From: Carcharhinus longimanus
Lineage: Eukaryota
Assembly: GCA_030264375.1 (NCBI GenBank)
Contig: JASCQW010000119.1
Location: forward strand, 47,793,418-47,857,417
DNA length: 64,000 nt
Direction: 5' to 3'
Each line of letters begins with the position of its first letter. Position 1 is the stretch's first letter. The translations under genes and the position numbers were made by a program. Shown here piece by piece: positions 19,055-23,754 of this stretch. Below the pieces are notes generated by a model, which saw only the letters and a list, made by a program, of their open reading frames with translations, was not told where the DNA came from and ran no database searches.

Positions 19055-19805
19055 ACTGGGCTTGTCAAAAGAAGAATCAGAACATCAGACATCCGTACAA
19101 GTGGAAATAGAAAATGAAGCCAGTTCACCTGTATTAGCAGGGCCATCCAAACAGCAAAGTCCGGTTAAAAAGCAGGATGAAAGAGTAAGGAAATGTACTA
19201 GAAGTTCAAAGGTGGACCTCAAATGCAGAGTGAAGCGGAGTCTTATTAAAGAAACACAGATTGAACTTCCTGAACCAAGTGAAAAAACAGTTTCATGTAC
19301 AGTCTCTTCTCAAGATACGAGGAGCCAGAAACAGCAAAGTCATGAAGCCAAGGTGTTTCATGCTGTTAGCTGTGCAGATGAAGATCAGCTGAGTTTAATT
19401 AAAAATGAAGCTAGACCTGGACAGCTAGAAGAAATTCTTCCAAATAAATCTGCCTTAAACTCCAAACCTATACTGCTTGCAGAAAGACCAGTTGGTGTAC
19501 AATCTCAAGAACATATCACATCTGATGGACGTTTAGAATTGACTGATGTGCAACCTGCTGGAATTTCTAAGGATCAGATCACCTGTTTAACTCTAAGGAG
19601 CGCTGCTTTGAAAAGTGAGTTGGAGCACAATTCTGGAGAGTCCAAAGACCAAAAGAGAAAGTCCTCTGAACATAGCGCCTCCACCTCTGGCCCTGAGAAG
19701 AAGCCACGTCTTGATGATCATCAGTCCTTTCGGACCGCAATTGATAGCTTTCGGACAGAAAAAGAACATCCTACAAAAGAAGAGCCAAAGGTGCCACCTA
19801 TTAGG
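19055..19805 (+). CDS. ASXL1: ASXL1 penultimate coding exon (basic NLS-like motifs, frameshift site, start of ASXM1)
   Basis: cag|A CTG GGC TTG TCA AAA GAA GAA...CCT ATT AGG|gtatgt; 751 nt. Encodes LGLSKEES...KDQKRKS...[14 protein letters not shown]...[10 protein letters not shown], as in ASXL1. Confidence 0.95.
19725..19733 (+). other. ASXL1: Candidate +1 programmed ribosomal frameshift site UCC_UUU_CGG
   Basis: In-frame TCC TTT CGG (S-F-R) at the position of the conserved ASXL1 UCC_UUU_CGU site; the +1 frame is open downstream across the splice junction. Confidence 0.75.
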
Positions 19806-22800
19806 GTATGTGTGTTTTTAAAAACGTTGAATCATTACTTGCAAAAATCATTTTAGTTTCAATTTTACTTTTCTTAGATGAGATGCAAAGTAATTTGGGA
19901 CAGTTACAGCGTTGCTTTGTTTTTCTGGAGTTAAAGTTTAGTCAAGGAAATGCGGTGGTCCATTCACGCCAAACCTGGCTTGAGAAAAATATTTTCCCCA
20001 CTTTCTACTTCTTGCCAAATAAAAGCTCAATTCCACCTTGCTATAGAAAGCTGAGGGGACTATGAGGTGAAATCAAAAAGGAAATTGAGAAAGCAGAGAA
20101 AGGACATGAAAAGAATATTGGCAAGCAAAATCAAGGTGAACTCAGAAATGTTTCCTCAATACTTTGAGTAAGAAGCTAAGGAAAGATTACAGCCCATAAA
20201 AGACCAGAAAGGTAATAATGTGGAGGCAGAAGATATTGGTGTTAAATAGCAGGACAGGTCAAATCTGTGGTTAAAATATATGAAATCCTTTGATTTATTA
20301 GCCAAATGAATGAATAAAAAAAGCAGGGAGGTTATGCTGGAGCTGTAAAAGATTTGTCAGGGCACAACATGAGTACTCCATGTGCAGTAACAATATAATT
20401 TCACTAGAGGATTTGAGGATGTTGCCAGAACTGGAAAATTGCAGCTTTTAAGGAAAGTTTGGACAGGCTGGACTGTTTTGCTTAGAATGGAGAAGGCTGA
20501 GGGGAGATCTAATTGAGATGCTCAAAACTGTGAGGAACTTAGATACTGTGAACGGGTCTCCATTCCGTCAGACTAGGGGGCATATATTTGAAGTGATTGG
20601 TACATGGATTAAAGTGGCCATGAGGCTTTTGTTGTAGCCAGAAGGTGGTAAGGGTCTGAAACTCATTGCCTGAAAGGGTGGTAGAGACAGAAAACCACTT
20701 TGAATTTAAAAGGTGTCTGGATTTGCACCTGAAGGACCATAACCTGTAGGATTACAGATCAAAATCTGGAAAGTGGGAGGAGGCTGGTTGGCACAAGCAC
20801 GATGAGCCAGGTGGCCTCTTTCTGTGCCAAAAAATTCCTATGGCAGCTTTCATTTTAAAACAGACAATTCTCTTAAGTTGAAAGGTTTCTTCTTTGCAAT
20901 ACTGCTTGATCCAGACCCCATACAGGAACTGTAAATGGAAAAGATGCATTATATAAAAAAAAAATCTGGTTCTGTTGCCTAAAATAAATTTTTGTCTTGA
21001 ATTATTGTTGGATTTGTGCCCGTTGATTGGATATTGGCGGTCATTGGCTCTGTAGGTTGACAAATGTGCATTTATAAGGTATGTAGTTGATCATGTACAT
21101 GCCATAGCGTACATGAGTTAAATCTCATGGAAGTGTTTTCTGATTTTTCTTTTGATGGAAGTAATCCAATGTCCCTCCCCAGCCAACCCACCAGCTACCA
21201 AGAAGCCAGGACAGCATGAACCAACTGGCTCCATGTCACACCGGAGCAGTAAAAGTGCTGTGGGGCTCATTAATGAGGGCCGAGTGGGACTTGATATCTT
21301 GCCCCCTAGAGCTGTCAGCCTATCCACTTAGCTGGCAGCTTCAAGGAGACTGGGATTGTCAGTTAGAAGTGGAGCCCAAGGCCTAGGATCCATGTAACAA
21401 GCAATTTCAGGTTCTTGGCCCAGAGGACTACAGGAATTTGGGTGGGAGGGTAGTTTGATTTTTATTTATTGTTGTCACGTGTATTGGTGTACATGAAAAG
21501 TATTGCTTCTTGGGTGATATACAGATGAAACGTAATGTTCATGGATTACATAGGGCAGAGGGAAAGGAGAGGTATGTCTGAAGTGCGTGGGCGTCCTTGA
21601 TTATGCTGGCTGCTTTTGCAAGGCAGTGGAAAGTGTAGACTGAATCAATGAAGGAGGAGGAGGAGGTTAAGTGAGGGAGTGGATAGGAAGGTAGGTATTC
21701 AGTCTTGAGATTTTGGGGGGTGGAGGGGTCGCCCTATGATTGAAGAGCAAACATCTTCCCTTGACTATTTCAGTTTAAAAAAACAGACTTCCAGCACGCA
21801 CCCTTCCGTCCACAAATTTATGGTGTGGGCACTGAATTATCAGGGTCATTTAGCTTGATAACGAGCTGAATTGACCCATAATATGATAGTGGGCTGCCAA
21901 TTTCAGCATCCGCCTGCCCTCTGAATTGTAAGGTTGAGATTGGGTGTGTGCAGCACCCACCCACATCATGGAATCTTTTAGGTCTACTTGAATATCAAAA
22001 ATAACTGTTCAACATTGCTTGAAAAGAAAGCACTATGCTAGATCAGCCCAGAAGGTGTACTGAAGTCCACAATGGGACTTGAACCCATAACACCTGATTC
22101 AGACACAGGTACTCATCTATTTCCCCATTGTGGGAAACATGCTAGCTTGGGGTTGGTCAAATTCAGCCCTTTATGTCGGGGGGTTCCCCGAAATTATTAA
22201 TGCCCTCCTGGGGTCTTATCCCAAATCCTGTCAGCAATCCAATGGAAAACATTACTGGCATTCGTGGATACCAATGAAAATATTTCCTACAATAGAACTA
22301 ACATATTGGTAAGTTTGCTCATATTGAACATTACTGAACTCTTGAGATCTTGTGCTGAAAGTGCTTGGTTCCAGGCAAATTGCTGATTCCAGGTTGAAAA
22401 CCCATTTTTGCAAGGAAAGATATTTTGATAATTAATTTTTAATAATTACACAGGGTTTTATGAGGAATATATTCTGCTTCGTAAATTGAAGATCTTAAAA
22501 TTTACATGTCTTCTCTGAGACTATTACAGCAGCTTTGCTCAATTGATGCATACCTGTGTCTGAATCAGGTGTTATGGATTCAAGTCCCATTGTGGACTTC
22601 AGTCCACCTTCTGGGCTGATCTAGCATAGTGCTTTCTTTTCAAGCAATGTTGAACAGTTATTTTTGACATTCAAGTAGACCTAAAAGATTCCACGATGTT
22701 GCAGAAAGTTTTCTCATGGTGTCTTGACCAACATTTCTTCCTCATCATATGGTATCTTTTAAAAAGAAATGAAATTTTGGATTGAAATTCTTGTTTTCCA

Positions 22801-23754
22801 ACATGATGACTTAATTGGAGTTTCATGTTGTGCTTTGGAAATCCAAAGGATGTGATGAGATACTGTGTAAGCACACCACTCGCCTCAGCTCTTTTTTGCA
22901 GGAACCAGAATGTACTGTTGATTTATTTATTTAGAACAAGAAGCTTTCCTTTTTATTCCTGATTTTTCTATGAATGTACATTCAATTGGTAAACCATAAC
23001 AGCATGGTGCGAATAGATGAGGGAAAAGTATGGAATATTTCAGGTTTGGTGATAAAATATATTTTGTTTGCATGTTAATGACTTCCTGTTTTGAAAGTCA
23101 GACACTGATAACCTGCCTTTTCTCTTTACAGATTGAACAATGTGTTCTGTAGTCTTGGTCCTTTCTGTTTTTGTTTCAGATTTAAATGTGTAATTTTCCC
23201 TTTTGTTTCATCAGATTAGTGTTTTGAAATTAATAGCAATTGTAGAAGGATCTATGTCTCTACCAAAATGTTGCGCAGGGTATAACTAGTTGCTTTCTTT
23301 GTGTAGAACCAGTTTTGCAAAAGCATTCTAAATAAATTTGCATTATTTTGCTTCCAGATTCAACTCTCAAGAATCAAACCTCCTTGGGCTGTCAAAGGGC
23401 AGCCAACCTACCAGATATGCCCCAGGATCGTCACTACAGTTGGGACAGTCAGTCGAGAAAGGACAGGTGCCAGAACACTTGCAGATATCAAAGCCCGTGC
23501 TCAGCAAGCCAGGGCACAAAGGGAGGCTGCAGCAGCTGCAGCTGCCAATGTTACAGTGGAAGGAGGGGGAAGGGGTAGTAGTGGTAGTGGACCACGGGGC
23601 ACTGATTCCCCCGGACCAGCCGACGGAAAAACAAAAGTTGTTGAACAAACTACAGCAAAACATCAGTATAGAGCACAGCTATTCCAAACCTGCGCAACAG
23701 ATGAACCAGAAAAACCCAGCGATGGAGAGATTAGTGTTAAGCAAGGTGTTATAA
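19732..23754 (+). CDS. ASXL1: ASXL1-TF overlapping +1-frame ORF (spliced 19732-19805 + 23358-23754; 156 codons plus TAA) with EHSY HCF-1-binding motif
   Basis: No stops in the +1 frame: [50 protein letters not shown]...[43 protein letters not shown] is GAG CAC AGC TAT at 23671-23682. Confidence 0.75.
20030..20845 (+). mobile_element. Degenerate CR1 LINE pieces in the last ASXL1 intron
   Basis: aaaaggaaattgagaaagcagagaaaggacatgaaaagaatattggcaagcaaaatcaagg and aggctgaggggagatctaattgag are CR1 ORF2-like. Confidence 0.65.
21963..22699. repeat. Long inverted repeat: 149-nt arms (21963-22111 and 22551-22699), 439-nt spacer
   Basis: The arms are reverse complements with 4 mismatches by manual comparison. 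Confidence 0.93.

Follow-up and report, generated by a model that had tools for sequence, protein, structure and literature searches.

Dinan, Atkins and Firth (2017; PMC5644247) predicted that ASXL1 encodes a second product, ASXL1-TF, in 200 species. In this prediction it is reached by a +1 ribosomal frameshift at UCC_UUU_CG(U/G) and carries EH[N/S]Y, which fits the HCF-1-binding consensus [D/E]HxY. The ghostshark entry has the site UCC_UUU_CGG and a TF of 162 codons. In the same work ASXL2-TF is entered in the last exon by a −2 shift at RG_GUC_UCU, ASXL3 is given neither the open reading frame (ORF) nor the motif, and neither ASXL2 nor ASXL3 is given an influenza-like site. Here the ASXL1 gene of the shark Carcharhinus longimanus is described from a stretch of 64,000 nucleotides (assembly GCA_030264375.1, contig JASCQW010000119.1, positions 47,793,418 to 47,857,417), termed the window; its features lie on the plus strand. 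The window probably holds an ASXL1-TF dual-coding region that is entered by a +1 shift and specifies a minor adaptor isoform.

Two further systems are close in their shift sites. Influenza A PA-X is made at UCC_UUU_CGU (PMC3498833). This resembles the shark site in having UCC in the E site, a P-site slip on UUU_C and CGN in the A site, with no need for RNA structure; it differs in that CGU is found in a virus, whereas the shark has CGG in a cellular gene with a doubled site. In PA-X, CGG halves shifting, and AGC lowers it by 40–70% without abolishing it (PMC3498833). The human PLEKHM2 gene, unrelated to ASXL1, has the identical UCC_UUU_CGG, and here a +1 shift of ~1.3% has been proven experimentally, with junction peptides QSFGP (PMC11451614, PMC12551717). 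For shark ASXL1, too, a QSF|GP junction is predicted, together with a shortened protein that gains a new functional tail. PLEKHM2 has a weak 3′ stem-loop, whereas the 72 nt 3′ of the shark site (exon part only) have no stable fold and in fact fold worse than shuffled sequences (z +1.4). Among vertebrates, very few cases are proven in which a cellular gene shifts +1 into an overlapping ORF (PMC12551717).

The shark ASXL1 gene and its +1 frame

As a preliminary description of this DNA had proposed, the gene in the window is, judging by homology, the shark ASXL1 orthologue. Its last-exon protein shares 97% identity with ASXL1 of Mustelus asterias, and the top-ranked matches are 14 elasmobranch ASXL1 proteins. 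Three loci in the genome match ASXL; the other two are ASXL2 (C27, 96% identical to Mustelus ASXL2) and ASXL3 (C61, 94%).

The penultimate exon of ASXL1 (exon 12 in a 13-exon numbering, by homology) spans 19055–19805, as placed by spliced contigs and phase. In frame with ASXL1 it has UCC_UUU_CGG (Ser-Phe-Arg) at 19725–19733, five codons past PEKKPRL with DDHQ intervening, and 26 codons before the last exon junction. The last +1-frame stops upstream are TAA at 19588, TAA at 19594 and TGA at 19609 (19588–19611). From UUC at 19729 the +1 frame has no stop for 157 codons, or 156 from the next codon. It runs through the remainder of exon 12 (19729–19805), where its start resembles that of ghostshark TF, and then through the last exon (23358–23754) to TAA at 23752–23754. 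The intron between has its donor at 19805|GT and its acceptor at AG|23358. Joints 15725|19055 and 19805|23358, both GT..AG, are present in contigs of all four runs from four related organisms, and no other joints or indels between exons 11 and 13 were found in the contigs of these runs. The RNA nature of the runs is a guess, as none is recorded as RNA; their contigs are spliced at GT..AG. EHSY is encoded in the +1 frame at 23671–23682, where the zero frame reads RAQLF, and lies 23 codons from the TF stop; it is found as well in the skate +1 frame and in ghostshark TF. Re-reading of the sequence upheld all positions given earlier for the site, the upstream stops, the TAA and EHSY, together with the 156-codon ORF across a splice junction, and both tryptic peptides then proposed follow from the translation.

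These properties match those of ASXL1-TF (PMC5644247) in the gene, the +1 direction, the position of UCC_UUU_CG(U/G) 26 codons before the junction, the ORF length (156 codons in the shark and 162 in the ghostshark, within a range of ~125–165), EH[N/S]Y near the C-terminus and the CGG shared with the ghostshark. The difference is that an elasmobranch is concerned here; a search of the published supplement gave no entry for 'shark', Rhincodon or Leucoraja. On this sequence evidence the ASXL1 feature is real and is a member of the published predicted system, and the concept, as had been noted, is already in print, including the CGG variant and the 162-codon TF of a cartilaginous fish (PMC5644247). 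Taken alone, it is a modest extension of a published prediction to elasmobranchs, and the comparison of paralogues weighs more.

The shift site and the motif are widely kept. Every one of the 114 ASXL1 proteins that could be scored has SFR at the primary site. All 17 chondrichthyan entries, 14 of them elasmobranch and three ghostshark, have a zero-frame pentamer that allows EH[N/S]Y, as do 95 of 97 others. When ghostshark ASXL1-TF (PMC5644247, supplement) is compared by eye with the shark TF, 19 of the first 25 residues and 16 of 24 around EHSY are identical, as are the last four. Another view of the frame is offered by P0425, a contig-derived protein without a name that clusters with those of skate; its reading frame changes within the last exon, at Gln-Arg-Glu, so that the +1 frame of skate becomes readable. 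Around EHSY, skate and shark are identical at 12/12 positions in the +1 frame and at 8/13 in the zero frame; over the TF tail the values are 51/79 and 46/79, and the four end residues are the same. By these comparisons the +1-frame peptide is conserved. P0425 was rejected as a natural TF isoform and served solely to view the skate +1 frame: its frame switch is inside the last exon, is seen in a single contig and most probably reflects an assembly error or a slip of two bases.

Could the open frame and EHxY be a non-functional by-product of constraint on the zero frame or on the RNA, an idea raised by a reviewer of Dinan 2017 (PMC5644247)? The zero frame is itself conserved here, in the BRD4-ET motif and the ARTLADIK block, and in ASXL3 of bony vertebrates a related pentamer persists in the zero frame, [DE]HxY-compatible in 79/97. 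Against this stands the probability of finding no +1 stop between site and TF stop, which is 9e-4 for the given zero-frame protein when codon usage is drawn from this genome's ASXL1, ASXL2 and ASXL3 with their TF regions set aside; under the same model the probability of [DE]HxY at the place of EHSY is 0.07. The longest +1 run in exon 12 plus the last exon is that of the site region (196 codons; the next has 70), and none of 82 overlapping windows of equal length downstream is open. The higher +1 than zero-frame identity around the skate motif also argues against a by-product, as does the alternation across taxa of R/G and T/A where the zero-frame pentamer begins, which the +1 motif would require. 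Two-frame dN/dS values of <1 are reported for human ASXL1 and ASXL2 (10.64898/2026.05.28.727796). A frame with no function is considered quite improbable.

Routes into the +1 frame

Slippage by +1 is the likeliest route to the TF frame as judged from the site, the exact nonamer of which shifts in PLEKHM2 (PMC11451614, PMC12551717). In about 1% of ribosomes, pausing while the P site holds UUU and the A site CGG, tRNA-Phe would re-pair on UUC, and 156 codons would then be translated to the TAA. As this stop is in the last exon, it is proposed that the mRNA escapes nonsense-mediated decay (NMD). Across ~4,000 codons in the three ASXL genes, in-frame UUU_CGN is found three times, each time at the homologous place, and CGG makes up 3 of 93 Arg codons of these genes outside the TF regions.

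A second in-frame slip candidate, AGC_UUU_CGG, is at 19746–19754, seven codons downstream of site 1. Ribosomes that pass site 1 would have a second, probably weaker chance here, and the second site may offset the weaker CGG. The doubled SFR is found in 17/17 chondrichthyan ASXL1 entries versus 0/97 other scoreable ones; in the ghostshark, the zero-frame DSFRT and the TF sequence IAFGQ would together force the same second-site codons. This second UUU_CGG site, absent from the main text of Dinan 2017 (PMC5644247), is new here.

The phase of exon 12 offers a different entry. The exon is 751, 748 and 1099 nt long in ASXL1, ASXL2 and ASXL3 of this genome, in each case 3n+1, so that its omission would join exon 11 to exon 13 in the TF frame; the product would be an NMD-immune DEUBAD-TF of ~510 aa with EHSY. 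This makes skipping a real rival to slippage. A single inherited exon phase would account for TF in all paralogues, the whole domain would be kept as Pfam ASXH is complete by exon 11, and in batoid ASXL3 the Phe of the site is lost (0/6) while the EH[N/S]Y-compatible pentamer is found in 6/7. Skipping leaves unexplained, however, the presence of UCC_UUU_CG in 200 species (PMC5644247), as well as the disappearance of Phe-Arg from ASXL2 in precisely the taxa without TF. No exon 11-to-13 joint was found in the four runs at a depth of 4–19, which excludes a dominant isoform only, as contigs drop rare forms. The end of exon 11 is seen in 501 of 538 proteins, none continuing into TF, in a set that is biased by having been gathered with zero-frame queries. 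When the TF peptide of the last exon was searched by phmmer against 1.84 billion representatives, just two matches resulted, both to unrelated Ig-domain repeats, though skate P0425 was missed as well; Pfam assigns the TF peptide to no family. Exon skipping as the source of TF is rated unlikely.

Entry within exon 12, whether at an internal start or at a cryptic acceptor, is rated highly improbable. The CAG directly before the site has an AG at 19723–19724 to which exon 11 could be spliced in the TF frame, and a +1 AUG at 19714 is five codons ahead of UUC. In-phase AGs number 11 in all, the pyrimidine tract of this one is weak (12/20), and contigs of the four runs show no such joint; the +1 AUG requires Asp, and 13 of 17 chondrichthyan entries have Glu.

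Several points weigh against slippage into a selected TF frame. In the literature covered, no direct evidence of ASXL1 shifting was found for any species, and the PLEKHM2 work states that it is not validated (PMC11451614, PMC12551717). For human TF a 2026 preprint (10.64898/2026.05.28.727796) cites a single peptide report; with this peptide support and two-frame selection it yet prefers alternative splicing, in general terms, its reason being that two paralogues are unlikely to have acquired unrelated mechanisms. By chance alone, the TF segment in exon 12 would be open with P 0.58, which makes it uninformative; conservation of the site is all that favours shifting over skipping. Somatic one-base deletions can produce the same frame, as in the Jurkat case of Dinan 2017 (PMC5644247), and binding of TF to HCF-1 is a prediction from the [D/E]HxY sequence. 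Substitutions in runs X1 and X2 give a mixed picture: 1 of 31 listed substituted sites is in the TF region versus 5.3 expected (P 0.02, becoming 0.07 if one unlisted site falls there), and for synonymous sites, in two close relatives, the count is 1 of 18 versus 3.4 (P 0.12, not significant). These counts leave 52 of 92 differences unlisted, and runs X8 and X11 were excluded because most of their differences are unlisted.

If made by slippage, the product would have ~760 aa and 84 kDa, with the M. asterias N-terminus taken as a proxy. It would keep HARE-HTH and DEUBAD, motifs from which it should still bind BAP1. DEUBAD is spread over three exons upstream of the shift-site exon, and Pfam ASXH ends in exon 11. 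The C-terminal PHD_3 (Pfam PF13922, E 1.3e-20, last-exon residues 1067–1106) is at 26556–26675, at the end of the last exon, and is absent from TF; the earlier proposal that DEUBAD is kept and the PHD lost stands. TF would also lose the BRD4-ET motif IRIQL (defined in 10.1101/2021.07.15.452438), the first two residues of which, IR, are encoded at 19800–19805 and the remainder at 23358–23366, and would gain a disordered tail with EHSY. From its motifs, TF might act as an adaptor in the BAP1 complex, giving up BRD4 and chromatin reading for HCF-1 binding.

The product had also been called a natural counterpart of leukaemic truncations, and this is only partly borne out. Like TF, the oncogenic truncations of ASXL1 (Y591X and frameshifts around residue 645) keep DEUBAD and lose the PHD. 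They differ in that they keep and expose the BRD4-ET motif 572–576, the common ones being situated past it (10.1101/2021.07.15.452438), and mostly lack EHxY (PMC5644247), whereas TF lacks the former and has EHSY. Because the shift is 26 codons before IRIQL (human 572–576), TF is not simply the counterpart of these mutants. A natural TF without the BRD4-binding motif that leukaemic and Bohring-Opitz truncations keep, as predicted here, changes the relation of the mutants to the natural product.

ASXL2 and ASXL3

A known puzzle is that two paralogues have the same hidden motif and two unrelated frameshift mechanisms. Shark ASXL2 has UUA_UUU_CGG 24 codons before the last junction (L014:1120-1128; C27:74454319) and a second UUU_C seven codons after the first. 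Its +1 frame is open for 186 codons and encodes EHNY (L012:533-544; C27:74457432). Downstream of UUA_UUU_CGG it also carries CAG GTC TCT, the −2 site of Dinan 2017, and it has a tail matching ghostshark ASXL2-TF (PMC5644247). It differs from the published ASXL2-TF, which is entered at the −2 site, by the extra upstream site that is homologous to that of ASXL1 and from which the +1 frame is open. Shark ASXL3 has UCC_UUU_CAG 26 codons before the junction (L013:1949-1957; C61:53210948) and a 146-codon open +1 frame with EHNY (L011:464-475; C61:53220763), seen in one genome at the DNA level. The probability of an open +1 frame is 2.5e-3 for ASXL2 and 1.1e-2 for ASXL3, and in each gene the TF run is the longest +1 run (211 versus 69 codons in ASXL2, 194 versus 111 in ASXL3). 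As read from this genome, the ASXL3 frame contradicts the published statement that ASXL3 has no TF (PMC5644247).

In other sharks, ASXL2 and ASXL3 were compared at the protein level. The ASXL2 survey scored 104 of 120 matches, with 16 dropped for want of an anchor and taxon groups assigned from source names. The homologous place is Phe-Arg/Gln in 84 of 85 named non-teleosts and Phe-His in the remaining one; none of 17 teleosts has it. A pentamer of the EH[N/S]Y type is similarly found in 80 of 85 non-teleosts and in 0/17 teleosts. QVS, the peptide of the −2 site, is kept in 16 of 17 teleosts and is missing in tuatara, in which ASXL2 retains SFR and a compatible pentamer. In Erpetoichthys ASXL2 (P0339) the first Phe is replaced (PLQ) and the second position reads SFQ, as though making up for the loss.

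ASXL3 shows a narrower distribution. Phe-Arg/Gln is present in all nine shark and chimaera representatives and absent from six batoids and from nine scoreable bony vertebrates (95 of 104 are not scoreable). The N/S-type pentamer is found in 9/9 sharks and chimaeras, 6/7 batoids and 0/97 bony vertebrates. Four further shark ASXL3 proteins keep Phe in three cases and have Leu in Chiloscyllium plagiosum. In Narcine ASXL3 (P0090 and isoforms) the +1-compatible pentamer is lost (RTQSL) and a zero-frame EHSY is found upstream; this is one species and may be chance. The A-site codon CAG of shark ASXL3 is not a known stimulator, and ASXL3-TF may therefore be a decaying relic.

The homologous UUU_C in three paralogues suggests, at the level of sequence, one ancestral +1 site and not two unrelated mechanisms. 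Chances are about even that TF arose once, before the ASXL1/2/3 duplications, by a +1 slip on UUU_C, possibly doubled, late in the penultimate exon. Sharks and chimaeras would then keep TF in all three genes, including an ASXL3-TF of ~146 codons with EHNY; ASXL2, that of human included, would be entered at this place and not at the −2 site; and the family would share a switch from the BRD4-ET motif to the HCF-1 motif. The human ASXL2 +1 frame is open across CCA UUU CAG and CCC UUU CUC, which are upstream of the −2 site (PMC5644247, Supplementary Figure 4). A single homologous site in the three shark genes would remove the puzzle, and these are the exact human ASXL2 sites it names.

A single origin has evidence against it as well. 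Teleosts, which lack ASXL2-TF, represent essentially one loss, and at the nucleotide level teleost ASXL2 loses the −2 site too (Dinan 2017, PMC5644247). Ascaphus ASXL2, among the dropped matches, has Phe-Cys, and the ASXL2 Phe may be conserved for protein reasons. Among the matches listed there is no lamprey, hagfish or invertebrate ASX to represent the state before the duplications. The literature returned by searches, with subscription journals mostly uncovered, has no prior report of the doubled site, the shark ASXL3 frame or the upstream ASXL2 site, and on skipping of ASXL1 exon 12 it holds nothing beyond the papers named here. These three features make the origin and the mechanism of ASXL-TF directly testable.

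Other features of the window

The remaining ASXL1 exons in the window were placed by homology. Exon 9 (5833–5996), at which DEUBAD/ASXH starts, is 100% identical by tblastn to residues 118–175 of protein P0001. DEUBAD continues in exon 10 (13648–13744, tblastn) and exon 11 (15620–15725), which has a phase-2 donor and the joint to 19055 mentioned above. The zero-frame coding sequence of the last exon is at 23358–26684 and has 1108 aa and a stop. N-terminal ASXL1 exons were not found by tblastn within the 64-kb window, and an Rfam scan of the whole window gave no match.

The acceptor of exon 9 is of the NAGNAG type (5827–5832). Two skate proteins (P0014, P0420) differ by one Ala at this junction, consistent with the use of both AGs. 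A natural truncated form of another kind is Chiloscyllium punctatum ASXL1 isoform X5 (P0386), annotated with 392 aa, which stops a little past DEUBAD in a short unrelated tail outside the TF frame.

Two kinds of intronic sequence were also observed. A stop-to-stop frame of 130 codons at 11550–11942 (plus strand) has a protein-like composition and no Pfam match. High-copy repeats at 16400–16700 and 21480–21660 show very deep contig cover and loose ends in all four runs, and we take them to be, probably, pieces of short or long interspersed nuclear elements (SINE or LINE).

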